Source: Coprothermobacterota bacterium (lineage in GTDB: Bacteria; Coprothermobacterota; HKB111). Taken from it: a DNA stretch of 64,000 nt. Of the stretch, positions 4,602 through 27,838 are shown piece after piece. The position numbers and the translations under genes are program-made. Location of the stretch: contig JBBIIY010000005.1 of the NCBI GenBank assembly GCA_037446255.1, positions 2,859 to 66,858 on the forward strand, in the 5' to 3' direction. The notes below the pieces were generated by a model, which saw only the letters and a list, made by a program, of their open reading frames with translations, was not told the DNA's origin and did not search any database. Numbering within the stretch: position 1 is the stretch's first letter; every line of letters starts with the position of its first letter.

Positions 4602-7028
4602 ATGAAGATTATTATAGTTGGTGCCGTAGCCGGTGGAGCTACAGCTGCTACCCGTTTAAGAAGAATTAAAGAAGAAGCCTTGATTACAATTTATGAAAGA
4701 GGTAATTATGTTTCTTTTGCTAATTGCGGTTTACCCTATCACATTGGTGAAGTTATCAGTAACCGAGATTCTTTAATACTACAAACACCTGATAGTCTAA
4801 AAAGTATTTTTAATTTTACAGTCAAGGTTAATCATGAAGTAAAATCAATTAACCCAAATAATAAAACTGTGAAAGTTAAAAATCTTGATACCAGCGAAGA
4901 GTTTGAAGATACCTATGATTACTTGCTACTTTCTCCTGGATCACAACCGATAAGACCTGACATCAAAGGTATAGAACTACCGAATATCTTTACTTTGAGA
5001 AATATACCGGATATGGATAGCATAATATCGGCAATCTCTCGTGGTGCCAAGAAAGCGGTGGTGGTAGGTGGTGGATTTATTGGTCTGGAAATGGCAGAAA
5101 ATTTACATCACCAGGGTTTAGAGGTTTCTATGGTGGAAATGCTCGATCAAGTATTAACCAGCTTGGATCCTGATATGGCTTCTTATGTTCATCAGGAATT
5201 ATTGGATAACGATATTAAACTCTTCCTGGGTGAAAAAGTAGAAGGTTTTGAGAAAAATACTGAAGGACAGATAGAAGTCTTGCTTTCCAGCGGAAGAAGA
5301 TTAACTACCGATGTGGTTATCCTGGCAATAGGAGTAAAGCCAGAAGTAGTTTTGGCTCAAGAAGCAGGACTAACCATCGGAAAAAGTGGAGGAATACTGG
5401 TTAATGAAAAAATGCAGACCTCCAATGAGTTCATTTACGCCGTTGGAGATGCTGTAGAAGTATATCACCTGGTTATTGGGGCTTCTACCAGAATTCCTTT
5501 AGCTGGAATCGCCAACAAGCAGGCGCGGGTAGCCGCTAACAATATTGCTGGTTTGCCTTCTACTTATGAAGGGGCTTTAGGAACCTCTATCGTGAAAGTT
5601 TTCAATCTGGTTTGTGCCTCTACTGGTGCAAACATAAGACTGCTCGATCAATGTCAGATACCCTATAAAACAGCAGTCATACACCCTTACCAGCACGCGG
5701 GATATTATCCCGGCGCTTCTATGATGCATATTAAATTAATTTATTCACCTGTGGAGGGAAAAGTTCTGGGAGCACAGGTTGTAGGTTTTGATGGGATTGA
5801 TAAAAAAATTGATGTATTAGCCACTGCTCTAATAAATAAGGCTACTGTTTATGATTTACAGAACTATGAATTAGCCTATGCTCCTCCTTTCAGCTCGGCC
5901 AGAGATCCGATAAACAGTTTAGGTTTTATTGCTGTTAACGATATTACCGGTTTTACCCCTTTGATTGACACCTATTCTCTTAAAAACTGCCTTAATAATA
6001 ATTACTTTTTACTGGATGTAAGAAACCCAGAGGAAGTACTGGCTGGTAAAATACCAAACTCCTATAATCTACCTCTTCACGAACTACGCAGTAGATTAAA
6101 TGAAATTCCCAGAGATAAAACCATAATCTCTTATTGTAAATTTGGTTTACGAGGGTATCTAGCCCAAAGAATACTGATACAAAATGGTTTTAATGCCTAT
6201 AATTTGTCTGGTGGATATGACAGCTTTCAAGCCCATTTTAGCCAACCTGAAACCACCATAAGGAGGTTTTCCGAAACAATAACCATGGAAAAACCGCTAA
6301 CAACCAATACTTTCAAAGTGAATGCCTGTGGATTACAATGCCCCGGACCTTTGATGAAACTAAAAGAAGCCGTGTCTAAAGCACAGGTTGGTGAGATTAT
6401 TGAAATTGAAGCCTCAGACCCTGGATTTTATAAAGATGTACAATCTTTCGCTACCTCTTTGAATTTAGAGCTTCTAAATTTGGAAAAAGGGAAAACCATC
6501 AAAGCTTCCTTAAAAATCTCGGATTCAAAAAAAGAGGAAACATTATCTACTTCTTATAGTAATCAGGTAACTATTGTAGTCTTTTCTAATGATTTAGATA
6601 AAGCTATTGCTGCTTTTATCATAGCTAACGGAGCACTGGCCATGGGTAAAAATATTTCTATGTTCTTTACTTTCTGGGGTTTAAATGTTCTAAGGAAAGA
6701 GGGAAAGGTTGCTGTTAAGAAAAATATAATTGAGAAAATGTTCGGATTGATGATGCCCAAAGGTTCTCGCAAACTTATTCTCTCCAAAATGCATATGTTA
6801 GGTATGGGAACCGGAATGATTAAATGGCTGATGAAAAGTTATAATGTAGATTCTCTGGATACTCTTATCAAGTCAACCATAGATAATGGTGGAAAACTGA
6901 TCGCCTGCACTATGTCCATGAATCTGATGGGGATTAAAAGAGAAGAACTATTAGAGGGAATTGAAGAAGGCGGAGTGGCCACTTATCTGGGTGATGCTGA
7001 AAAAGGTTGTATAAACCTATTCATTTAA
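4602..7028 (+). CDS. four-domain fusion: CoA-disulfide reductase-type FAD/NAD(P) oxidoreductase + rhodanese + TusA/SirA-like + DsrE/DsrF-like domain
   Basis: GAVAGGATAA FAD motif. Redox Cys42 in SFANCGLPY. Second Rossmann motif VVVGGGFIGLE. Rhodanese active-site loop YCKFGLRG (Cys512). TusA motif CGLQCPGPLMKLK (Cys576/580). C-terminal region from about aa 656 (VTIVVFSNDLDKA...LIACTMSM) resembles DsrE-like proteins. Confidence 0.85.
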   Translation: MKIIIVGAVAGGATAATRLRRIKEEALITIYERGNYVSFANCGLPYHIGEVISNRDSLILQTPDSLKSIFNFTVKVNHEVKSINPNNKTVKVKNLDTSEEFEDTYDYLLLSPGSQPIRPDIKGIELPNIFTLRNIPDMDSIISAISRGAKKAVVVGGGFIGLEMAENLHHQGLEVSMVEMLDQVLTSLDPDMASYVHQELLDNDIKLFLGEKVEGFEKNTEGQIEVLLSSGRRLTTDVVILAIGVKPEVVLAQEAGLTIGKSGGILVNEKMQTSNEFIYAVGDAVEVYHLVIGASTRIPLAGIANKQARVAANNIAGLPSTYEGALGTSIVKVFNLVCASTGANIRLLDQCQIPYKTAVIHPYQHAGYYPGASMMHIKLIYSPVEGKVLGAQVVGFDGIDKKIDVLATALINKATVYDLQNYELAYAPPFSSARDPINSLGFIAVNDITGFTPLIDTYSLKNCLNNNYFLLDVRNPEEVLAGKIPNSYNLPLHELRSRLNEIPRDKTIISYCKFGLRGYLAQRILIQNGFNAYNLSGGYDSFQAHFSQPETTIRRFSETITMEKPLTTNTFKVNACGLQCPGPLMKLKEAVSKAQVGEIIEIEASDPGFYKDVQSFATSLNLELLNLEKGKTIKASLKISDSKKEETLSTSYSNQVTIVVFSNDLDKAIAAFIIANGALAMGKNISMFFTFWGLNVLRKEGKVAVKKNIIEKMFGLMMPKGSRKLILSKMHMLGMGTGMIKWLMKSYNVDSLDTLIKSTIDNGGKLIACTMSMNLMGIKREELLEGIEEGGVATYLGDAEKGCINLFI

Positions 7029-14495: not shown

Positions 14496-16361
14496 TTACT
14501 GAGTCAATAATTTATACCCCTTTTCCTTGAATAATTTAAGACAGGCATCTACAACTTCAGTATCGTAGGTTATTCCTCTACCGTTCTCTATTTCCTTCAA
14601 AGCTGCTGACAAAGGATAGGCAGGTCTATGAGGACGATGGGAAGACATAGCTTCCACTACATCCGCCACCGCCAAGATTCTGGCTTCCAACATCATTTCC
14701 TCACCTTTAATTCCCCTGGGATAACCGCTTCCATCCATTCTTTCGTGGTATTGTTGGACAATACCGGCAACTGGCCAGGGAAATTCAATATTCTTTAGAA
14801 TATCGTATCCTAACTCAGCATGAGTCTTTACTATATTGAATTCAAAATGGTTGAGTTTACCAGGTTTATTGAGAATTTCTGAAGGTATATATATTTTACC
14901 TATATCATGCACCAGGGAAACCAGGTATAAACCGTTAACCCTGTTTTCTTCCAGACCTATCTCTCGAGCAATTGCAGTACATAAATCTGCCACCCTTCGT
15001 TGATGCCCTGCTGTATATGGGTCACGGATTTCCACAATTTTCGCCATGGCATAAATAATATCCTCAAGGTTTTTATTGGTTTTATTATAGCTTTCCCTTA
15101 TTTTTTCCTCGGCCAATTTTCTCTCAGTTATATCAATATGGGAACCTAAAATACGGAGAGGTTCTCCATTTTCGTCCTTGATTAAGGTTCCATGCGACAA
15201 TATCCACTTGTAAGTGCCATCTTTATGTCTTAATCTAAATTCCAAATTATAGGGATTTTCCTGATTTTTTATATATTCATTCTGGATGCCAAGTACCCTA
15301 TCTTTATCCTCTGGATGTAACCTGGTTAACCACTCATTATTGTCATCAGGTATTTCCTTATCTTCATACCCTAATTGTTTTTTCCACTCGGGAGATAAAT
15401 AAGTTTCATTGGTTTGTACATTAAAGCTCCATAAACCGATATTAGCTGACTGGATGCTTAATCTTAATCTCGCCTCACTCTCTACCAACTTTTTTTCAAC
15501 TAATATTTTTTCAGTAATATCTTGGATGATGGAAATATTACCTAAAGGCTTTCCATCAGCGTCTAAAAGTTTATAAGCATGGATTTCTCCTGTAAAAACT
15601 TCCCCGTTTTTTCGTTTAAATCTATATGTCAGATTTTTAGGAGCAATTGGTTCATCAATATAAAAAAACTCTCGCCCACTGCTTTCATAATCCTCGTCGC
15701 TAGCATAGAGCAGTCGGACATTTTTTCCTATCACTTCTTCTGGAGTATAGCCAAACATGGCTTTCAAAGCTGGACCATTGACGTCTATAATCTGACGGTT
15801 TACAGAAGTTATTAAGATAAGATCTCTAATACTATTAAAAAGGTTCAGGTATTTTTCTTCGGATTGCGATAATAATTTATATGATTTTAAAAGCTTATTT
15901 CTTTCATTCTCAATTTTATTTATTATTAAAGAGGAGTATTGTTGAATAAATTCTGCTTTATCTATCATAGCAAACGGGGTAGGCTTATGAATTTTAAATT
16001 TATTCAAGTTATCATTTAAAACTACCATAAACTCTTGAAAATCGTTACCTTTAGGTATATAACCATCGGCAACCAGATTCATAATAAAGCTTTGCTCATC
16101 CGGATCGGTATAGACAGATGAATAAGCAATCATAGGTATATTTTTAGTGCCATCGCCAGCTTTTATCTCATATAAAAACTGAAATCCATCCATCACAGGC
16201 ATGGAAACATCAAAAATTATTAAATCAGGGTTCTCTTTTCTGGCTAATTCCAAACCCTTCTTACCATTTTCAGCCTCCACAACCTGATACTCAGCTTGCC
16301 GAAGGAACATTTTCAATAGTTTTCTTTCATCGTCATTGTCGTCAACTATCAATATTTTCAT
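14496..16361 (-). CDS. response regulator with receiver + 2 PAS + HD-GYP (c-di-GMP phosphodiesterase-type) domains
   Basis: Receiver motifs KILIVDDNDDE and DLIIFDVSMPVMDG. PAS-like repeats. HDIGKIYIP and HERMDGSGYPRG motifs. I prefer the ATG at 16361 over the upstream TTG at 16376. Confidence 0.85.
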   Translation of the reverse strand: MKILIVDDNDDERKLLKMFLRQAEYQVVEAENGKKGLELARKENPDLIIFDVSMPVMDGFQFLYEIKAGDGTKNIPMIAYSSVYTDPDEQSFIMNLVADGYIPKGNDFQEFMVVLNDNLNKFKIHKPTPFAMIDKAEFIQQYSSLIINKIENERNKLLKSYKLLSQSEEKYLNLFNSIRDLILITSVNRQIIDVNGPALKAMFGYTPEEVIGKNVRLLYASDEDYESSGREFFYIDEPIAPKNLTYRFKRKNGEVFTGEIHAYKLLDADGKPLGNISIIQDITEKILVEKKLVESEARLRLSIQSANIGLWSFNVQTNETYLSPEWKKQLGYEDKEIPDDNNEWLTRLHPEDKDRVLGIQNEYIKNQENPYNLEFRLRHKDGTYKWILSHGTLIKDENGEPLRILGSHIDITERKLAEEKIRESYNKTNKNLEDIIYAMAKIVEIRDPYTAGHQRRVADLCTAIAREIGLEENRVNGLYLVSLVHDIGKIYIPSEILNKPGKLNHFEFNIVKTHAELGYDILKNIEFPWPVAGIVQQYHERMDGSGYPRGIKGEEMMLEARILAVADVVEAMSSHRPHRPAYPLSAALKEIENGRGITYDTEVVDACLKLFKEKGYKLLTQ

Positions 16362-16422
16362 CTTTATACACCCCAAATCTAAAAGTTTGGTTGTATTTCA
16401 ATTATATAATAATTCACTTATT

Positions 16423-16788
16423 TTAAACACCCAACAATTTATGAATTTCCTGGATAATGGTAAGAGGGTTTATGGGTTTATCAAAGTAACCATTAACACC
16501 ATAACTTAATATCCTTTCCCTATCACCCCTCATGGCAAAAGAAGTCATAACTATAATTGGAATTTGTTGACATAAGGAATTAGCTCTAATTTCCTTTGCT
16601 ACCTGCAAACCATTGATATCAGGTAAATCAACATCCAATATAATAAAAAAAGGGTTCTCTGAAGTGGCTAATTCCATCCCGGTAGTCCCATTGGAAGCAG
16701 CTATTACCTGATAACCAGACCTTTTTAAGGCATAAGTTATAAGTTTCAAGTTGTTTTCGTTATCTTCAATTACTAGTACTTTTTTCAT
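16423..16788 (-). CDS. single-domain CheY-like response regulator
   Basis: 121 aa. VLVIEDNENN, ILDVDLPDINGL and the conserved Lys in FDKP. Overlaps the kinase stop by 4 nt. Confidence 0.85.
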   Translation of the reverse strand: MKKVLVIEDNENNLKLITYALKRSGYQVIAASNGTTGMELATSENPFFIILDVDLPDINGLQVAKEIRANSLCQQIPIIVMTSFAMRGDRERILSYGVNGYFDKPINPLTIIQEIHKLLGV

Positions 16789-18545
16789 GTTTTAGCCTCC
16801 AATATCTCTCGTTTCTCTAAAATAGGTAAAATTATAGTAAATTTACTACCCTTATCTTTCTCGCTTTCTACCAGTAGTTCACCTTTCAGTATCTCATTTA
16901 CAATCTTATTAGTAAGATAGAGCCCCAATCCTACACCAGCAATTTTTTTCTCTTTATTCACCAGGCGGGTAAAGGGGGCATACAGTTTATTAACTTCTTC
17001 AGGAGTCATTCCCATACCAGTATCTTCCACGGTTATTACCAAACGGTCAGAAAAAATATGATTACAGATGGTTACTCCACCCTTTTCGCAAAACTTCAGA
17101 GCATTGCTTAATAGGTTGTAAAGGCACTGAGTTAAACGTCTTTTTTCGGTAAAAATATTTACAGGAGTAAGTTCTAACTTTAACCATAAGCCTGAGCTTT
17201 TTGTAACCGTAGAAAGATTTTTAACCAGTTCTTCTATCAGTTCCTTTAATTCAAACTCTTCAAAATGCATCTCTGAAACCCCGGCTTCAATTTTTGCCAC
17301 ATCTATAATGTCGTTTATTAAAGAAAGAAGGTATTTTCCGGATTTTAGAACTATAGAAAGGTTTTCCCTTTGTTCATCATTTATGGGGCCTACCCATTCC
17401 TCCAGTATAATACTGGTAAAACCAATAATGGAGTTTAGAGGAGTGCGTAGTTCGTGACTCATCGTAGCAATAAATAAGGATTTCAGGTCATCAAGTTCTT
17501 TTAATTTCCGATTATACTCTGTTAAATCATGAACGGTTTTCTGGGCTTCCCTCAAATGGGTGATATTAATTCCGTTACTAAGGATGCCATAGATTTTACC
17601 ATCTTCATCTCTTAATAAATCGTTATACCAGTATATCTGTATCTCTTCACCGCTTTTGGTCAGCACAGGATTTTCATGATAAAATTTTATATCTGTTTCT
17701 CCTTTTAATGAACTAAAATAATCCTTCACCTCTTTATGAATCCTCACTGGTAAAAATTTATCTACCCAATTTTTGCCCAGTATCTCGTAATCGTGATAAC
17801 CAAGGAGTTCACAACCCTTTTTATTTATGAGGATTACTTCCATTTCCAGGTTCAAAGCTAAAACTATGTCACCAGTTACATCCAGCAAAGCCTTCAAGAA
17901 TTTTCTTTCTTCGGCTATTTTGGTACGAAGTAGTAATTTTTCCGAAACATCATGAAAAATCGCTAATAAACAATTTCTATTTTGAAGTTCAATCTCTTTA
18001 AAAGTAAGGTCAACATAAACGATTGAGCCATCTTTTAGTATTACTGGAATTTCATAGGCATGTATATTTCCTCTTTCATAGGCTTCTTTAAGGACAGAAA
18101 ATAATTTTTTTAAACAATCATCTTTTTCTCTACCCTCAACTACTTTAAAATTTAGTATTTCTTCTCTACTGTAACCCAGCATATCTTGCAAAGCTCTATT
18201 GGAAATTAAAAAAGATTGATTTTCCACATCTACTATTAACATACCTTCAACCATGGAATTGGATATTTTTCTTATTTGATTGAGGTATTCTACTTCCTTT
18301 CTATGAGTTTTTTCTAAATCCAGATAATAACTTCTGATAAGTGCAAATAGTACCAGACCGCTAAAAATTACATAAAATGACTCTTTATAACTTTGAAATA
18401 CCATATACAATTCAGGGTCGGGAACCAATAATGCCAAGGCTCTGTCTGAAAAATAAATCCAGGCAAAGCCAAATGATATATAAATAAGGAAGATCTTTAA
18501 GGGTACTATTAAATTTTTCATGTTTTTAACAGATAATTTATACAT
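16785..18545 (-). CDS. PAS-domain sensor histidine kinase
   Basis: Two N-terminal TM helices, PAS repeats, H-box ATMSHELRTPLNSIIGF, and N/G boxes (LSNALKF, EDTGMGM, GVGLGL). Confidence 0.85.
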   Translation of the reverse strand: MYKLSVKNMKNLIVPLKIFLIYISFGFAWIYFSDRALALLVPDPELYMVFQSYKESFYVIFSGLVLFALIRSYYLDLEKTHRKEVEYLNQIRKISNSMVEGMLIVDVENQSFLISNRALQDMLGYSREEILNFKVVEGREKDDCLKKLFSVLKEAYERGNIHAYEIPVILKDGSIVYVDLTFKEIELQNRNCLLAIFHDVSEKLLLRTKIAEERKFLKALLDVTGDIVLALNLEMEVILINKKGCELLGYHDYEILGKNWVDKFLPVRIHKEVKDYFSSLKGETDIKFYHENPVLTKSGEEIQIYWYNDLLRDEDGKIYGILSNGINITHLREAQKTVHDLTEYNRKLKELDDLKSLFIATMSHELRTPLNSIIGFTSIILEEWVGPINDEQRENLSIVLKSGKYLLSLINDIIDVAKIEAGVSEMHFEEFELKELIEELVKNLSTVTKSSGLWLKLELTPVNIFTEKRRLTQCLYNLLSNALKFCEKGGVTICNHIFSDRLVITVEDTGMGMTPEEVNKLYAPFTRLVNKEKKIAGVGLGLYLTNKIVNEILKGELLVESEKDKGSKFTIILPILEKREILEAKT

Positions 18546-18831: not shown

Positions 18832-18905
18832 TGGCTGGGGAGAATGGATTCGAACCACTACTAAGGGATCCAGAGTCCCCCGTCCTACCGTTAGACGACT
18901 CCCCA
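18832..18905 (-). tRNA. tRNA-Gln (anticodon CTG), CCA encoded
   Basis: The reverse complement TGGGGAGTCGTCTAACGGTAGGACGGGGGACTCTGGATCCCTTAGTAGTGGTTCGAATCCATTCTCCCCAGCCA folds as a cloverleaf by hand: 7-bp acceptor, anticodon stem GGGGA/TCCCT, loop CTCTGGA, T-loop GGTTCGAATCC. Confidence 0.9.
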
Positions 18906-18962: not shown

Positions 18963-20831
18963 ATGACTACTGGTATCAACCTTAAATCAGATAGCAAAGA
19001 AGATACAATACTCTTCCTGGAAATTATTGCCTTATTGCACGATATTGGAAAACTTAGCACTAACTTTATCCATTCCAAAGCCATAGATAATTCCCAGGAA
19101 GACACGCATGCTTTATTACCACTTTCTGATAATTTTCCTGAGATTTTTCGGAAGATTATTACCATTTATAGCAATAACAGTAAGCAGAAGCCTTTTGAGT
19201 TTAACCCTTTTACTTTAATCTGTTCTCACCATGGTTGCGAAAGGTGCCAAAGTGAATGCTCATTTAAACATAAAAATCCTATAACCACGCTTCTAAGGCT
19301 GGCTGACCGGAGAGCCTCCGAAGAAGAAAAAGGATTTCTACTGGACAGCTATAGGCAACCAAAAGATGAAACCTACTTTTCTAATCCATTCGGAAAAGAA
19401 TTATTGGTTTTCACGGGTATAATTGACGAATGCCGTAATGAGTTATGGAAAATAATCAATAAGGTATTGGAAAAGAAAAATATTCAAGAGGTCAGGAATC
19501 AGATAATTCCGTTAATAGAAGCTGTTTACACCTTCTTCCCCTCTGAAACCAGAAGACCAGGAAACGATCTGTCTTTATGGGATCACTCCTTCACCACATC
19601 TACCTATTTTAAGATTGCCCTGTATGAAATGCTCATAAACGGTAAAAATATTCTCTCAACGCAAAAAATTCCTGTGGTTTTCCTTAAAATAAAAAAGAGG
19701 CAGGATAAATTTAGAGAGTTAATAGAAAATAAATATTGTGCAGGTAACCTTATTCTTTCCTTCGGTGGTTATCATATTTATGCTATTGGAGAGTCTTTTC
19801 TGAAAAATGAGTCTTTGCCGAAGAACGAAATTTCTGAATCTTTTTTCTCTTTAATTCCCAGTCTTGAAGAAGAAATTGAGAACCTTGACTTTACCGGTGC
19901 CACCTCAGTTTTTATACCCGATTATCGCAGTTTATTCAGTCATATTGCTGAATCCACTTTTACCCAACCTCTTACCAGGAATCAGATGGTAGAGGCAAAG
20001 GTGATTTTAAACAAAGTTATTGTCCAGAATTGTCTCCGTGAAAAAAGAGAAATTGAAGAAAAAATAAAGAGTATCTCCCGCCATATAAAAAATCTGGAAA
20101 ATAGCGGATTGAAGGAAGAGAGAAAAAACGAATACTTATTGAAATTAGAGGATATTTACCGCTTGAATGCAAACCTGAACTTACTTTCCAAATTAAGTGA
20201 AACATTCAATAGTGAGAATTCTTTTTTGAGGCTTAACCTCCCATCCTGGGAGGTATCGGTCCTAAACCTATATCAAGATTGGCTCAAAACAGATTCTGCT
20301 ATAACTTTTGATGAATACGCTCTTTACAATCTTTCCCAAAGAAAACCATCTGTAAGTTCGTGTTCCAGTCTGGTAAGGGAAGTAGAAAAACAACTTGCTG
20401 CTGTAAAAAAGTTTCTCTTAAATAGAGATTGTTATTGTTGGGAAAGCGAGGGAGTTCTGTATATTAAAGAACCTTTAACCAACGATTTACTTCTGGAAAG
20501 TAAAAAAATAATAAACAGATTATCAGGAAAAAGCCTCGGTTTAATTCCTATCTACTGGTATAAGATTAATAAAAAACCTTTTTCTCCAAAAAAACGGAAA
20601 CACAGTTTTCATAAAGTTGAAGAGTGGAAGTGGGGTATATTAACGCCCGAGAATTTTTTATTACTTCAGTTTGAAAAAAAGGAGACGATAAAAGTCAATT
20701 TAGCCAGAGGAGATAGTTCGTTGGATATTCACAGACTTTACCGAAAAAATAAAATTGGGCGGTTTATACACCTTAGCGATGTTAGGGTAGGGGATTCAAT
20801 TCTCTGGTTTTTTCCTCTGGAAAGATATTAG
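18963..20831 (+). CDS. HD-domain protein with a Cas10-like N-terminal half (HD + degenerate Palm1) and an unrecognisable C-terminal half
   Basis: 622 aa. Motifs LLHDIGK, CSHHGCERCQSEC, LADRRAS, FFPSETRRPGNDLSLWDHSFTT and LSFGGYHIYAIG. No GGDD motif. See findings. Confidence 0.55.
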   Translation: MTTGINLKSDSKEDTILFLEIIALLHDIGKLSTNFIHSKAIDNSQEDTHALLPLSDNFPEIFRKIITIYSNNSKQKPFEFNPFTLICSHHGCERCQSECSFKHKNPITTLLRLADRRASEEEKGFLLDSYRQPKDETYFSNPFGKELLVFTGIIDECRNELWKIINKVLEKKNIQEVRNQIIPLIEAVYTFFPSETRRPGNDLSLWDHSFTTSTYFKIALYEMLINGKNILSTQKIPVVFLKIKKRQDKFRELIENKYCAGNLILSFGGYHIYAIGESFLKNESLPKNEISESFFSLIPSLEEEIENLDFTGATSVFIPDYRSLFSHIAESTFTQPLTRNQMVEAKVILNKVIVQNCLREKREIEEKIKSISRHIKNLENSGLKEERKNEYLLKLEDIYRLNANLNLLSKLSETFNSENSFLRLNLPSWEVSVLNLYQDWLKTDSAITFDEYALYNLSQRKPSVSSCSSLVREVEKQLAAVKKFLLNRDCYCWESEGVLYIKEPLTNDLLLESKKIINRLSGKSLGLIPIYWYKINKKPFSPKKRKHSFHKVEEWKWGILTPENFLLLQFEKKETIKVNLARGDSSLDIHRLYRKNKIGRFIHLSDVRVGDSILWFFPLERY

Positions 20832-20848: not shown

Positions 20849-21304
20849 TTACCTACCAAATAAACTATGCGAGAGAAAGAGAACTACAATACCGGCAATG
20901 GCTGCTCCCAGAGAAATGGAAAGAAAACCTTTTTGCCAGCTCATTCCTATCAACCAGCTGAGAATAGTGCCTGAATAAACTCCACTTGCAGGTAAGGGAA
21001 TTGCTACAAATAAAGCTAACCCCAGCATTCCGTATCTGTCAACATAAGGCTTCCCCCTGCTTCTTAAATTAGTTATATATTTTTTGTATATATTCCATTT
21101 AAAAAGATATTTTTCATGAAAAAAGTTGAGCAGGATAATTATAGGGAAAAAAAGGAGAATATTCAAAACTACGATACCAAAATATGCCAGTACAGGATTA
21201 AAACCTAAACCAATAGCCAGGGGAATACCACCTCTAAGTTCGCTTATCGGGGTTACGGTTGCTATAAAAACCATAAATAGTTTATGAAAGGCGTTTAATT
21301 CCAT
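20849..21304 (-). CDS. small multidrug-export-like membrane protein (COG2426 family)
   Basis: 151 aa with four hydrophobic segments. N-terminal TPISELRGGIPLAIGLG motif is typical of the family. Confidence 0.6.
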   Translation of the reverse strand: MELNAFHKLFMVFIATVTPISELRGGIPLAIGLGFNPVLAYFGIVVLNILLFFPIIILLNFFHEKYLFKWNIYKKYITNLRSRGKPYVDRYGMLGLALFVAIPLPASGVYSGTILSWLIGMSWQKGFLSISLGAAIAGIVVLFLSHSLFGR

Positions 21305-24641: not shown

Positions 24642-25805
24642 TTGAATAAATATGCGATAAAACAGAAAGGGTTAATATTACCTATTCTTATTTCCTTTCT
24701 TCTTTGGATAGCACCCTTACCCTATGCCTATGCCCTCACCACCCTCGCTGAACCAAGAATAAACATAACTAAAGCAGAAACTTTTGAAAACGACCTATAC
24801 CTGGCAGGTCAATCCGTTAATATACAGGGCAAAACTAAAGGAGACTTACTTTCCGCCTCTATTGACTTCACTTTAGACGGTAGTGTGGGGGGAGATTTAA
24901 ATGCCATTTTTCAAAGAGGCTTCCTGAGTGGAAACATAGGTGAATCTGCACGAGTAGTAGGAGTATGGATATTTTTCCAGGGGAAAGTCGCTAAAGACTT
25001 CCTGATGATGGGAAGCGAGGTTCACCTCCAACCAGAAGCATTGATTGGAAGGGATATTTTGATCGTAGGCAACAGGGTAATACAAGAAGGAACTATAGGA
25101 AGAAACTCAAGAATTTGGGGAAAGGAAGTCTTTCTTAAAGGCAAAATTACCGGAGATGTAGAAATCACTGCTGAAAAAATAAACCTTTCTCCAGAAGTGG
25201 TAATTGAAGGTAACCTGGTCTGGAATTCTTCTAACCCGGCGGAAATTAGCCCTGAATGCATTATAAAAGGTGAAATAAAGGGAAAGATTATCTACATACC
25301 CCCATTGGAATTACCCTGGAAAGGCAACTTCTCTATATCATTTCTCCTGAACTTTTTTGCGCTTTTCATCTCGGGAATAGTCCTGCATGTAATTTTTCCA
25401 GAAAGATTCACGGTGATTAGAAGTAAAGCTATATCCTATCCATTTCAAAGTCTGGGAGTGGGTATAGCAGCCTTACTGCTTTTCCCGCTAATTATTGCTG
25501 TTTTATTTGTTTCTGTAGTAGGTGTCCCTTTGGGAATTATGTCACTATTTTTTTTAATTTCTACTATATATTTAGGTAGAATTTACGCAGGTTTTTATTT
25601 AGGCGAAAAAATTAATTCTCTTTTACTCAAGAAAAGCCTGCACCCTTTTATATCACTTTTTATGGGATTATTAATTATTCTAATTTTAGCTCAACTTCCC
25701 AATTGGGGATGGATTGCCACTATTCTATCTACCATTATGGGTATGGGAGCTTTGGTGATGGCTTTTATTCAGGGTTTTCTGAAAAGAAAAGTAGGTAATA
25801 AATAA
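24642..25805 (+). CDS. membrane protein: signal peptide + beta-helix-like (bactofilin/polymer-forming-cytoskeletal-like) repeat domain + polytopic C-terminal domain
   Basis: 387 aa with a TTG start after AAAGAGG. Has repetitive G-x-[IV]-x-G-D/N segments and about 5 C-terminal hydrophobic helices. Shares its architecture with 46183-47178. Confidence 0.45.
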   Translation: MNKYAIKQKGLILPILISFLLWIAPLPYAYALTTLAEPRINITKAETFENDLYLAGQSVNIQGKTKGDLLSASIDFTLDGSVGGDLNAIFQRGFLSGNIGESARVVGVWIFFQGKVAKDFLMMGSEVHLQPEALIGRDILIVGNRVIQEGTIGRNSRIWGKEVFLKGKITGDVEITAEKINLSPEVVIEGNLVWNSSNPAEISPECIIKGEIKGKIIYIPPLELPWKGNFSISFLLNFFALFISGIVLHVIFPERFTVIRSKAISYPFQSLGVGIAALLLFPLIIAVLFVSVVGVPLGIMSLFFLISTIYLGRIYAGFYLGEKINSLLLKKSLHPFISLFMGLLIILILAQLPNWGWIATILSTIMGMGALVMAFIQGFLKRKVGNK

Positions 25806-25817
25806 TATAAATAACAC

Positions 25818-26663
25818 ATGAAAGATAAACTTGATGAATTTTTACTTTATCTCTCTCTGGAAAAGGGGTACTCCAGGCAAACTATCACTGCTTATAAGTC
25901 TGACCTGAAATTTTATTTTCAGAACTTTGACAATTTGGATGAAAATTCTTGCGAGGCTTATTTAAAGCTTCTATACAGCAAAGGGTTAAAAGGAAGCAGT
26001 ATTGAAAGAAAAATTTGCAGTCTCAAAGCTTTGCTTAAATATCTATACCTCAGGAGTTATATCACCAAAACCAATTGGTCCGGCTTAAAGTCCATCAAGC
26101 GAGAAAAAAAACTGCCCAATCCTCTTAGGCCTTCGGAAATTGAAAAGATATTCTCTTTAGCCAACCCCAAAGAAACTCTTATTCTCGAAACTCTTTTCGC
26201 TACTGGCATCAGGGTCTCAGAATTAGTGGGGTTAAAAGTGAAAGATGTGGATTTGAAGGAAGGTTTTTTAAAAATCAAAGGCAAGGGGAATATAGAAAGG
26301 ATAGTTCCCATGACTCTTTCTCTTATGGGTATGCTGGAAAAACATATATTGGAAAGGAAGGTTCAACGAGATGATTTCGTGTTTTATGATACTCATCCCC
26401 AGGTTCATCTAACCCGACAGGCAGTTTTTCTGATGATAAGGAAACTCGCTGAGTTGGGAAGTTTAACCAGAAAACTGGGTCCTCATATGTTCAGGCATAC
26501 TTTTGCTACCCGCCTGCTCCGTGGTGGAGCAGACTTGAGAGTAGTTCAAGAAATACTGGGGCATAAAAATATTACTACCACGCAAATATACACCCAGGTT
26601 GAAGATGATGCCCTAAAACAGGCTTATCAACAGAGCCATCCTTTAAGTAAGAAGAATAAATAA
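25818..26663 (+). CDS. xerD: tyrosine site-specific recombinase, XerD/XerC type (chromosome dimer resolution)
   Basis: 281 aa. SAM-like N-domain (LSLEKGYSRQTITAYKSDL), catalytic region ATGIRVSEL, HMFRHTFAT, LGHKNITTTQIYT. Lies immediately upstream of deoB, as ripX-drm does in Bacillus. Confidence 0.75.
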   Translation: MKDKLDEFLLYLSLEKGYSRQTITAYKSDLKFYFQNFDNLDENSCEAYLKLLYSKGLKGSSIERKICSLKALLKYLYLRSYITKTNWSGLKSIKREKKLPNPLRPSEIEKIFSLANPKETLILETLFATGIRVSELVGLKVKDVDLKEGFLKIKGKGNIERIVPMTLSLMGMLEKHILERKVQRDDFVFYDTHPQVHLTRQAVFLMIRKLAELGSLTRKLGPHMFRHTFATRLLRGGADLRVVQEILGHKNITTTQIYTQVEDDALKQAYQQSHPLSKKNK

Positions 26664-26665
26664 AT

Positions 26666-27838
26666 ATGAGTAAAAGGGTAATATTGATTATACTTGATGG
26701 TCTCGGTGTGGGAGCAATGGAAGATGCTTACCTTTATGGAGATGAAAATACCAACACCCTTAAAAATGTTCTGAATGAAACCGGTGTAGAAATACCTAAT
26801 CTAATTTCCCTCGGATTACTAAAAACTATAAATAAACTGAATGAACCAGTAAACTCCTCGGCTGCTTATGGAAACATGAAAATTTCATCTCCGGGTAAAG
26901 ATACCACTACCGGTCATTTTGAGTTGATGGGGATTATCAGAGAAAAACCCTCACCTACTTTCCCCGAGGGTTTTCCTGCGGGTTTGATAAAGGAGTTTGA
27001 AAAAAGAATAGGCAGAAAAACGATTGGCAATAAACCTGCCTCCGGTACGAAAATAATAAATGAGTTAGGGAATATACACATGAAGACCGGCTATCCCATT
27101 GTTTATACTTCAGCCGATAGTGTTTTTCAGATTGCAGCTCACCAGGAAATTATTACTTTAAAGGAACTTTACCGTATTTGCGAAATTGCCAGGCAGTTGC
27201 TCCAGGGTGATTGGGAAGTGGAAAGAGTTATTGCCCGACCCTTTATAGGTGAGAGCCCAAATTTTATCCGTACTCCCTTCCGCAAGGACTTTAACCTGCC
27301 AGCACCAGAAAAAACAGCTCTTGACTTCCTATCAGAGCATAATATTCCCGTATGGGTAATCGGTAAAATCGGAGATATATTTTCCATGAAAGGAATAAGC
27401 CGGGAAGTTCGTACCAAAAACAATCAGGATGGGATGAAAAAAATAACCTTAAGCCTGAGTAAATTGGAAAGAGGATTAATTTTTACCAATCTAAACGATT
27501 TTGATACTCTTTTTGGACATAGAAGAAACCCCGGGAAATTTTCCGAATCGCTTAAAGAGTTTGATGATTTTCTTCCCGTTCTTCTTGATAAATTAAAAAA
27601 GGAAGATTTACTCATAATAACTGCTGACCATGGCTGCGACCCCACCTATACCAGACACACCGACCACACCAGAGAGAAAGTTCCCCTGTTGGTTTATTCC
27701 CTAATGATGAAAAAGAAAATGTATCTGGGAGAAAGAGAAAGTCTATCCGATGTAGGACAAACTATACTTGACTATTTCCAAATTTTGGATAATTCAGTTG
27801 CAGGAAAGAGCTTTCTCCCCGAACTCAGTATAGGGTAA
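26666..27838 (+). CDS. deoB: phosphopentomutase
   Basis: 390 aa. ILDGLGVG, KDTTTGHFELMG, FTNLNDFDTLFGHRRN and ITADHGCDPT motifs. Confidence 0.9.
   Translation: MSKRVILIILDGLGVGAMEDAYLYGDENTNTLKNVLNETGVEIPNLISLGLLKTINKLNEPVNSSAAYGNMKISSPGKDTTTGHFELMGIIREKPSPTFPEGFPAGLIKEFEKRIGRKTIGNKPASGTKIINELGNIHMKTGYPIVYTSADSVFQIAAHQEIITLKELYRICEIARQLLQGDWEVERVIARPFIGESPNFIRTPFRKDFNLPAPEKTALDFLSEHNIPVWVIGKIGDIFSMKGISREVRTKNNQDGMKKITLSLSKLERGLIFTNLNDFDTLFGHRRNPGKFSESLKEFDDFLPVLLDKLKKEDLLIITADHGCDPTYTRHTDHTREKVPLLVYSLMMKKKMYLGERESLSDVGQTILDYFQILDNSVAGKSFLPELSIG

Follow-up and report, generated by a model that had tools for sequence, protein, structure and literature searches.

What does a Cas10-like protein do where no CRISPR-Cas system is to be seen? 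This question is raised by one gene, at positions 18,963-20,831, in a 64-kb stretch of contig JBBIIY010000005.1 from a Coprothermobacterota bacterium (the whole stretch is hereafter called the window). The original prediction, made from the sequence alone, described the gene product as an orphan Cas10-like protein with an HD domain, a degenerate Palm1 and a novel C-terminal half, and regarded it as either an exapted Cas10 derivative or a remnant of a type III system. In this study, we found that the product, here called mini-Cas10, belongs to a family of solo proteins related to Csx11, the Cas10 large subunit of type III-C systems. Its identity as a miniature Cas10 and its exaptation are highly probable. 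Our overall reading is that mini-Cas10 is a CRISPR-independent HD hydrolase that has no CRISPR RNA (crRNA) or Cas partners, synthesizes no cyclic oligoadenylate (cOA), likely acts on single-stranded nucleic acid and carries Zn or an Fe-S cluster at a four-cysteine (Cys4) site; we favor this reading with modest confidence.

The N-terminal half carries the relationship to Cas10. Library profiles match mini-Cas10 only at residues ~10-240, namely the PADLOC Cas10c (III-C) profile (E 1e-31, N-terminal part only), the NCBIfam Csx11 profile TIGR02682 (E 4e-20) and the Csm1 profile (E 8e-6). The Csx11 match reaches 71.6 bits against a cut-off of 248.95 bits and is confined to profile positions 9-226 of 1007, so that the full-length equivalog test failed. 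When a profile of the short family (A3) was compared with 33 Csx11 sequences (A5) by hhalign, the two matched with a probability of 100% (E 6e-46) over family positions 7-296, a span that covers the HD domain and the Palm1 strands b1-a1-b2-b3. The motifs LLHDIGK (H26-D27), CSHHG and LADRRAS (D115), which had been read in this order in the original prediction, are present; they align with Cas10 profiles as well as with Csm1 chains of known structure, as does SETRRPGNDLSLWDHS, which had been likened to the 'DISLYDHS' segment of Cas10 and aligns to the motif of both Csm1 and Csx11. H26-D27 is kept in all 24 short-family rows covering the column (one N-terminally incomplete row has a gap) and in 33 of 33 Csx11 sequences. 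The ligands H26, D27, H49, H89, D115, D202 and H208 are invariant in all covering short-family rows and are found in 32-33 of the 33 Csx11 sequences.

The proposed Palm1 element also held: 'LILSFGGYHIYAIG' aligns to strands b2-b3 of the Csx11-type Palm1, and in the profile comparison GNLILSF..YHIYAIG of the family is paired with GNxIYxDxNGIYFLxP of Csx11. The Palm1 of mini-Cas10 lacks the ~25-residue Csx11 insertion (WDGxxF...KIGDIxGR). Both features expected of the Cas10 superfamily, the HD ligands with the S/G-ETR...ND..L.DHS motif and a Palm1 after the HD domain, are thus found. We conclude from these alignments that residues 1-296 have homology to Csx11-type (III-C) Cas10, where they cover the HD domain as well as the first half of Palm1. 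It had been considered that the protein might be a generic HD phosphohydrolase with no similarity to the Palm fold. Palm1 similarity was found, and both PF01966 (generic HD, 13.6 bits against a Pfam gathering threshold of 22) and PF18019 (16.4-18.4 against 23.1) scored too low. The Cas3-HD profiles (PF18019 and TIGR01596) gave weak matches at residues ~11-116 (E 1e-4 to 1e-2), under their curated cut-offs. The relation of mini-Cas10 to generic HD and Cas3 HD domains is at the superfamily level only.

The C-terminal half has no match in Pfam, NCBIfam or PADLOC profiles; in this respect the statement that its ~330 residues could not be assigned stood. The claim of novelty did not. A sub-profile of the longer family members (the query, L010, L011, P0002, P0029, P0032 and P0034) aligned residues ~492-614 with Csx11 at a probability of 94.4% (E 9.2e-8, 117 columns). 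The matched C-terminal segments of Csx11 are SPxxFxxxVPA ... YxxxFGKVxGRLPL..KRKxP ... LGDxxxDxYHPY ... HxxxIxKGDxI. On the strength of this alignment, we take residues ~492-614 to be the counterpart of the degenerate, GGDD-less Palm2 of Csx11 and the beta region that follows it. Because of this match, we regard the C-terminal half as a contracted Csx11 C-terminus and not as a new domain. Local hhalign of the C-terminal halves against Csx11 gave two collinear matches (E 4.8e-5 and E 1.6e-4); the latter places the helical middle on the Csx11 segment between the zinc finger and Palm2 (KxPSPSRLxRxW) only weakly, with a probability of 51%, which falls to 7.6% with the smaller sub-profile of the longer members. 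The C-terminal half is conserved within the family: K367, H374, R460, P462 and D588 are invariant among close members, and the helical region has the family motifs RHIxNLxxG (H374) and RKPSxS (R460, P462).

Several parts of a type III effector Cas10 had been reported as missing, and most of them are. The GGDD cyclase motif is absent throughout the 622 residues, and residues 492-540 align to the GGDD-less Csx11 Palm2. No CxxC...CxxC of a treble-clef zinc finger occurs between residues 296 and 490, while Csx11 has the invariant C433, C436, C448 and C451. As for the D4 (Cas11-like) domain, the Csx11 alignment stops at ~551 of the 701 positions of the C-half template and the query ends eight residues on, leaving the Csx11 tail (FDFxFLDS...TQxxNxExL...) without a counterpart. 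Of Palm2 itself, a degenerate remnant is recognizable within ~492-614.

The predicted structure agrees with this layout. A first AlphaFold2 run with a 12-sequence alignment was unusable (mean predicted local distance difference test score, pLDDT, 52.6), and the model from a 23-sequence alignment was used instead (pLDDT 79.5, predicted template modelling score 0.82). It consists of a helical HD domain (12-225), a ferredoxin-like unit (238-331; strands 238-244, 261-267, 270-276 and 315-319, helices 249-257 and 321-331), a helical hairpin of ~40 residues (339-415), a helical bundle (430-487), a b-hairpin/helix/strand unit (492-534) and a beta-rich domain (548-615). In a Foldseek search of the PDB, Csm1 chains were the only matches at E < 0.01 (probability 1.00, ~350 columns (351)), the best being 6ig0_A and 6ifz_A. 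Sequence searches of the PDB gave marginal Csm1 matches only (E 0.06-0.8). Whole-chain Foldseek assigned none of the C-terminal domains, and its weak palm-polymerase and uL2-like matches were taken as noise.

Word-indexed homology searches, profiles included, plateaued at 17-18 proteins, and the wider family was reached only by a HMMER scan with the family profile, which was exhaustive over 1.84 billion representatives and gave 473 matches. Among these (representatives at 50% identity), ~20 short proteins of 450-706 amino acids cover most of the profile, and more than 200 are long proteins of 900-1200 amino acids aligned at profile positions ~3-300. The long relatives bear the NCBI name 'CRISPR-associated protein Csx11' and match the Cas10c profile end to end, and two of them (loci L007 and L009), which served as positive controls, are flanked by RAMP genes. 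The long relatives are genuine type III-C large subunits. Among species-representative genomes, relatives of mini-Cas10 occur in Ca. Psychracetigena formicireducens (72% identity), Ca. Lithacetigena glycinireducens (58%), Coprothermobacterota (37%), Caldisericota and metagenome-assembled genomes of Vulcanimicrobiota/Eremiobacterota; the family is thus present in several deep-branching phyla of anaerobes, namely Caldisericota, Coprothermobacterota, Lithacetigenota and Eremiobacterota/Vulcanimicrobiota. With the 34 loci contributed by a metagenome scan, the total comes to 53 loci in 12 lineages at 55% identity. Family members are annotated as 'hypothetical protein' in every source, and the literature collection searched contained no description of such a solo short Cas10 family. 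No relatives were found in IMG/VR viral contigs, GenBank phages, PLSDB plasmids or BFVD folds.

The short family and Csx11 (TIGR02682; Cas10c) share identical HD ligand positions, the ETRRxxNDxxLxxHS motif, Palm1 b1-a1-b2-b3, a GGDD-less Palm2, FGKVxGRLPL-like and LGxxxxDxY...HxxxxxxGD-like segments and the order of these elements. In contrast to Csx11 (~950-1200 amino acids), mini-Cas10 is ~40% shorter, has no zinc finger, Palm1 insertion or D4, has gained a Cys4 insertion in the HD domain, is never found in a RAMP operon and falls in a separate clan, split from Csx11 in 98 of 100 neighbor-joining bootstraps of an unrooted tree. Csx11/Cas10c is the nearest family. Mini-Cas10 is homologous to it, but we classify it neither as Csx11 nor as part of a type III system, because it scores below the cut-off and lacks the zinc finger, D4 and the operon context. 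Cas10 of type III-C has itself been described as cyclase-inactivated (PMC12669027, PMC3150331), and the 2025 classification, which reports the same inactivation, lists exaptation as a recurrent trend (PMC12669027).

The Cys cluster C-x4-C-x2-C-x3-C, which had been noticed inside the HD domain, is the sole gained feature of the family. This insertion of ~10 residues, C87-x4-C92-x2-C95-x3-C99, flanks the HD ligands H89/H90. Of 25 family members, 22 have the insertion, and each cysteine is present in 22-23; all 33 Csx11 sequences lack it and have gaps or other residues at these columns. To judge from the cysteine pattern, the site may bind Zn or an Fe-S cluster; model confidence in this region is 56-74. 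The members without the cysteines (P0029, P0032 and P0034) have the most Csx11-like C-termini and lie nearest to Csx11 in the neighbor-joining tree. This pattern suggests that a Csx11-like ancestor was reduced step by step and that Cys4 was gained afterwards.

Comparison with the two nearest orthologues gave ratios of nonsynonymous to synonymous substitution rates (dN/dS) of 0.25 and 0.20; for the four regions taken singly (HD, Palm1-like, helical, C-terminal), the ratio stays within 0.15-0.40. A full-length reading frame, of 450-700 codons, is kept in at least 12 lineages over several phyla. The window locus is syntenic with the orthologues of Ca. Psychracetigena and Ca. Lithacetigena, and the Lithacetigenota loci have downstream genes in common with the window. 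The original prediction had found the gene more AT-rich than its neighbors, which is not borne out: its GC content is 35.3% against 39.0 +/- 2.7% across the window genes (z = -1.4), its GC content at third codon positions (GC3) is average (z = -0.2), and the three genes upstream, at 33-36% GC, are as AT-rich or more so. The low GC content is explained by a protein rich in Lys, Glu, Asn and Ile and not by foreign origin, and an origin by horizontal transfer or from an island was rejected on GC3, codon usage and synteny. Composition, synteny and purifying selection thus argue that the gene is native, vertically transmitted and functional.

The orphan state of the gene, as originally claimed, was confirmed in the window and extends to the whole family. 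Among the 57 open reading frames (ORFs) of the window, profile search found no Cas, CARF or SAVED protein besides mini-Cas10, and repeat scans of the 64 kb found no CRISPR-like repeats or array. Beside the family gene, no cas genes or CRISPR arrays were found in the 53 loci (643 kb, flanks up to 10 kb). A tblastn search of the 643 kb with all proteins of two real III-C operons gave no matches other than the Cas10 homologue and a single generic AlbA_2 gene; it supplemented a PADLOC scan of 104 flanking ORFs, which listed 25 of 50 families and was not exhaustive. The AlbA_2 gene belongs to a pair: a Schlafen/AlbA_2 gene lies just downstream of a genuine III-C effector operon (L007:9042-9872), and a 35%-identical one, followed by HATPase_c_4-HTH, lies 450 bp downstream of a solo family gene (L045:7551-8922). 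This common ORF was rejected as a Cas protein because it is generic Schlafen/AlbA_2. CRISPR-like k-mer matches in L040 and L054 proved to be one coding tandem repeat and one set of palindromes resembling repetitive extragenic palindromic (REP) elements, not CRISPRs. The palindromes, on a Caldisericota-like contig (L054:5518-5891 and 16170-16295), form clusters of ~44-nt repeats (core TTGTCATTCCCGTGAAAACGGGAATCCA) that are irregularly spaced and partly overlapping, and resemble REP elements or miniature inverted-repeat transposable elements.

The neighbors of the family gene are housekeeping genes, such as those for ribosomal proteins, DnaB, SSB, RuvABC, pyruvate:ferredoxin oxidoreductase, acetate kinase, M20 peptidase, XerC, UvrA and ABC transporters, and each neighbor gene is limited to at most five of the 12 lineages. 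A gene for a XerC/D-type recombinase followed by one for a phosphopentomutase-like metalloenzyme (PF01676) lies 5 kb downstream of mini-Cas10 in the window (25818-27838) and immediately upstream of the family gene in Caldisericota (L003:3846-5889; L013, L014, L015 and L025). This pair is a deep synteny between phyla, and we read the pepM20-NUDIX-XerC-metalloenzyme synteny as a sign of vertical inheritance and draw no functional conclusion from it. A NUDIX gene occurs within 5 kb of the family gene in four of the 12 lineages (0, 1, 2 and 7). In Coprothermobacterota it is convergent and overlapping; in lineage 2 it encodes an NrtR-type regulator and lies directly upstream, and in Caldisericota it lies two to three genes upstream. 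With ~3 independent events and variable orientation, the association is suggestive only and not statistically secure.

These findings lead us to the following proposal. Mini-Cas10 would have been miniaturized from a Csx11-type, cyclase-dead III-C Cas10 large subunit by loss of the zinc finger, the Palm1 insertion and D4, with both Palm domains left as structural remnants only, and would then have gained the four-cysteine insertion beside a fully conserved HD active site. It would work alone, or as a homo-oligomer held by the long helical hairpin. It is plausible that it is a metal-dependent HD hydrolase acting, as the Cas10 HD domain does, most probably on single-stranded nucleic acid, and that its Zn or Fe-S cluster has a structural or redox role. 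It would neither synthesize cOA nor be guided by crRNA, and would serve a cellular, vertically inherited function instead of adaptive immunity. That the hydrolase is a nuclease in particular is put forward tentatively.

Several points weigh against this proposal. The substrate is suggested by ancestry alone, while HD domains also hydrolyze nucleotides and second messengers, and to our knowledge the HD activity of III-C Cas10 itself has not been characterized so far. Homology of the helical middle (339-487) to Csx11 is unproven. The metagenome scan relied on a Cys-motif pattern, so the sampled lineages are biased, and because the tree is unrooted, derivation from Csx11 follows from parsimony, which gives the direction. 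Our coverage of this genome is 64 kb, so type III partners could be encoded in trans here. Lastly, coupling of the family gene to LipS1-LipS2 in four of the 12 lineages points away from a role with nucleic acids.

This coupling is seen in lineages 8-11. In all of their 19 loci, at least one of which is from Caldisericum, the family gene is the last in a compact operon with the order S-adenosylmethionine (SAM)-methyltransferase, YkoF-like protein, LipS1, LipS2 and family gene. The ORF ends overlap or nearly so, the family gene directly follows LipS2, and the YkoF/thiamine-binding-protein-like protein has 100 amino acids. LipS1 scored 245-270 bits against a cut-off of 230 and LipS2 312-329 bits against 270 (NCBIfam equivalogs). 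It may be asked whether the protein is an accessory of radical-SAM/lipoyl-cofactor synthesis, in which Cys4 would hold an Fe-S cluster and the protein would support LipS1/LipS2 by auxiliary-cluster servicing or by-product hydrolysis, nucleic acids not being its substrate. Between these lineages the family proteins are less than 55% identical, and still the operon has been kept; Cys4 is the one feature gained, and all hosts are anaerobes. LipS1 and LipS2 together form the lipoyl synthase, and their auxiliary [4Fe-4S] clusters are consumed in turnover (PMC9585515). However, the four lineages are perhaps all Caldisericota, so that shared ancestry could explain part of the linkage, the neighbors in lineages 0-7 are unrelated, and three family members have no Cys4 cysteines. 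An HD hydrolase is needed by no known lipoate-pathway role, and no HD or Cas10-like neighbor of LipS1/LipS2 is mentioned in PMC9585515 or in the pathway paper PMC10332631. Unlike the published lipS1-slpl(AB)-lipT-lipS2 clusters, the cluster found here contains no lipoate ligase or H-protein gene. We consider such an accessory role unlikely. Since no LipS1 or LipS2 homologue was found in the 64-kb window, the linkage is a lead for the family and not a statement on the window locus. A general form of the idea, in which solo mini-Cas10 is an Fe-S-binding HD partner of LipS1/LipS2 or of radical-SAM sulfur-insertion enzymes generally, is a long shot; such a partner might service sacrificial clusters or clear by-products, and in window-type lineages the gene might have left the operon and kept this role.

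The defense-protein ancestry of mini-Cas10 and its intact HD site would also suit a stand-alone nuclease of innate immunity, that is, a Cas10 HD effector freed from crRNA guidance and activated by another cue. The AlbA_2/HATPase_c_4 gene near the family gene in L045 fits this idea, and mCpol offers a precedent. In mCpol the Palm/cyclase domain is still active and the HD domain is absent, and the protein acts in defense together with a partner effector. PMC12657230 presents it as the 'miniature CRISPR-Cas10 enzyme' of the Panoptes system, which makes it an example of a cut-down Cas10 relative acting outside CRISPR-Cas. By this description mini-Cas10 is not an mCpol, for it has kept the HD domain and has no GGDD, its Palms are dead, it has no conserved partner and it is found in housekeeping contexts. 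No defense islands were found around the family gene, whose neighbors include ribosomal, DnaB, RuvABC, pyruvate:ferredoxin oxidoreductase, XerC and ABC-transporter genes. The gene is syntenic among related genomes, looks vertically inherited and is absent from the viruses and plasmids searched. There is no conserved sensor or partner gene; a constitutive solo nuclease would need control, and none is visible. An immune nuclease is, in our view, rather improbable.

The original prediction had also allowed for an ordinary divergent Cas10 with partners just outside the window. That mini-Cas10 is still a true type III effector subunit, with its Cas7/Cas5/Cas11 partners and array elsewhere in the genome, would be compatible with the 64 kb visible, with the retained remnants of both Palm domains and with the finding that III-C loci often have no adjacent arrays (PMC12669027). 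Yet cas genes are found in none of the 53 loci, the flanks of up to 10 kb hold housekeeping genes only, and the nearest real Csx11 genes are in RAMP operons. The protein has lost D4 and the zinc finger, the family separates cleanly from Csx11 in the tree, and consistent uncoupling across such divergence is unlike the behavior of an effector subunit. We judge this case very unlikely. The view that the gene is a pseudogene or decaying leftover of an earlier type III-C locus, to which the reduced length, the lost domains and the absent partners might point, is hardly credible and is rejected because of purifying selection in every region, the C-terminal half included, the invariant catalytic residues, the newly gained Cys4 motif and the full-length ORF in at least 12 lineages. 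Of the two origins first offered for the gene, exaptation, borne out by a family that is solo throughout and under purifying selection, is therefore the best reading.

Among known systems, Csm1 (III-A; 6ig0, 6ifz, 6mua and 9asi) provides the only solved structures matched by both fold and sequence (...DISLYDHS...). Unlike mini-Cas10, it has active GGDD cyclase Palms, a zinc finger and D4; it synthesizes cOA and belongs, as a subunit, to the Csm complex, which is guided by crRNA. The Cas3'' and Cas3 HD nucleases are of the same HD superfamily branch, and Cas3'' is likewise a stand-alone HD protein; it is encoded in type I loci. Mini-Cas10 belongs on the Cas10 side by its Palm remnants and by a C-terminal HD motif that is specific to Cas10.

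The features are listed in the table. The start codon of the mini-Cas10 ORF matches the starts of the orthologues L010 and L011. Both flanking genes were as originally described, a tRNA gene upstream and a convergent membrane-protein gene downstream, and the latter is likewise downstream of the family gene in the orthologous locus L011. A promoter/terminator scan gave no signal beyond shuffled expectation. An opposite-strand signaling operon (14496-18545) lies directly upstream; its HD_5 protein is a second HD-domain protein near mini-Cas10 and is unrelated to it. The remaining window genes are ordinary and include those for a MacB-type ABC exporter, an SLH-anchored solute-binding protein, XerC/D, DNA polymerase III delta, M16 peptidases, a PAS histidine kinase, response regulators and the phosphopentomutase-like metalloenzyme. 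At 4602-7028 (+), pyridine nucleotide-disulphide oxidoreductase, rhodanese, TusA and DsrE-like domains are fused in an 808-residue protein that resembles a multidomain protein of sulfur trafficking. A 387-residue ORF at 24642-25805 (+), between the SLH solute-binding protein and XerC, had nothing above the Pfam threshold and a weak bactofilin-like match (E 3e-4). PADLOC gave single matches among the 57 window ORFs to mad3 (E 7e-32), PD-T4-2_B (E 2e-28), mad8, pVip, AriA and SduA, of which the pVip match is probably a radical-SAM gene.

Table. Features of the mini-Cas10 gene, its neighbors and family loci (positions in the window unless a locus is named)
Feature	Position	Strand	Basis or remark
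Solo miniature Csx11-type Cas10 homologue, complete gene	18963..20831	+	ORF call, 622 aa + stop codon
Cas10-type HD domain, residues 1-230, mostly helical	18963..19652	+	PADLOC, NCBIfam, hhalign, AlphaFold2, Foldseek
HD dyad H26-D27	19038..19043	+	Translation reads HD
Cys4 insertion CSHHGCERCQSEC (C87, C92, C95, C99), putative Zn or Fe-S site	19221..19259	+	
SETRRPGNDLSLWDHS, Cas10 signature C-terminal HD motif	19542..19589	+	Compared with Csm1 'S.T...DISLYDHS' and Csx11 'GETRRxANDVTLWDHS'
Reduced Palm1-like ferredoxin-fold domain, residues 236-335	19668..19967	+	hhalign to ~296, AlphaFold2, Foldseek
Helical hairpin (339-380, 385-415) and helical bundle (430-487)	19977..20423	+	AlphaFold2 model
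Palm2 remnant, degenerate (b-hairpin 492-501, helix 507-520, GKSLGLIPIYWYKINKKP), together with the C-terminal beta-rich domain	20433..20807	+	
C-terminal beta-rich domain, residues 548-615	within 20433..20807	+	Carries LARGDSSLDIHRLY ... IHLSDVRVGDSI
tRNA-Gln(ctg), divergent upstream neighbor	18832..18905	-	ARAGORN; 57 bp upstream of the mini-Cas10 gene
Small multidrug-export membrane protein (PF06695), convergent downstream gene	20849..21304	-	Pfam E 1.8e-28
PAS histidine kinase, upstream signaling operon	16785-18545	-	
Single-domain response regulator, upstream signaling operon	16423-16788	-	
Response regulator-PAS-PAS-HD_5 (HD-GYP-like) protein, upstream signaling operon	14496-16376	-	
LipS1-LipS2-mini-Cas10 operons	L036:6148-9470, L039:2340-5677, L044:674-5451 and 16 more loci		Lineages 8-11
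NUDIX genes near the family gene	L001:11853-12293, L005:9280-9951, L045:4688-5356, L003:3338-3868, L025:1615-2142		

In conclusion, Cas10 is the signature protein of type III CRISPR-Cas, and surveys of type III systems filter out solo Cas10 hits as noise (10.1101/2023.06.26.546636); one such discarded group is a coherent family under purifying selection, which has kept the HD catalytic site, has shed what a Cas10 needs for assembly into a complex and for signaling, and has gained a putative metal site. For annotation, this means that CRISPR typers based on hidden Markov models will report such genes as orphan Cas10c. The LipS1-LipS2 linkage in a third of the lineages is an unexpected, concrete and testable lead, and if the reading of the protein as a LipS partner were true, a CRISPR effector subunit would have been exapted into cofactor biosynthesis. 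The family mirrors mCpol, the HD domain being retained here and the Palm there, and offers a small, monomeric system for studying the poorly understood HD domain of III-C/Csx11. It looks like a clear example of how part of a CRISPR effector can be put to use outside CRISPR.

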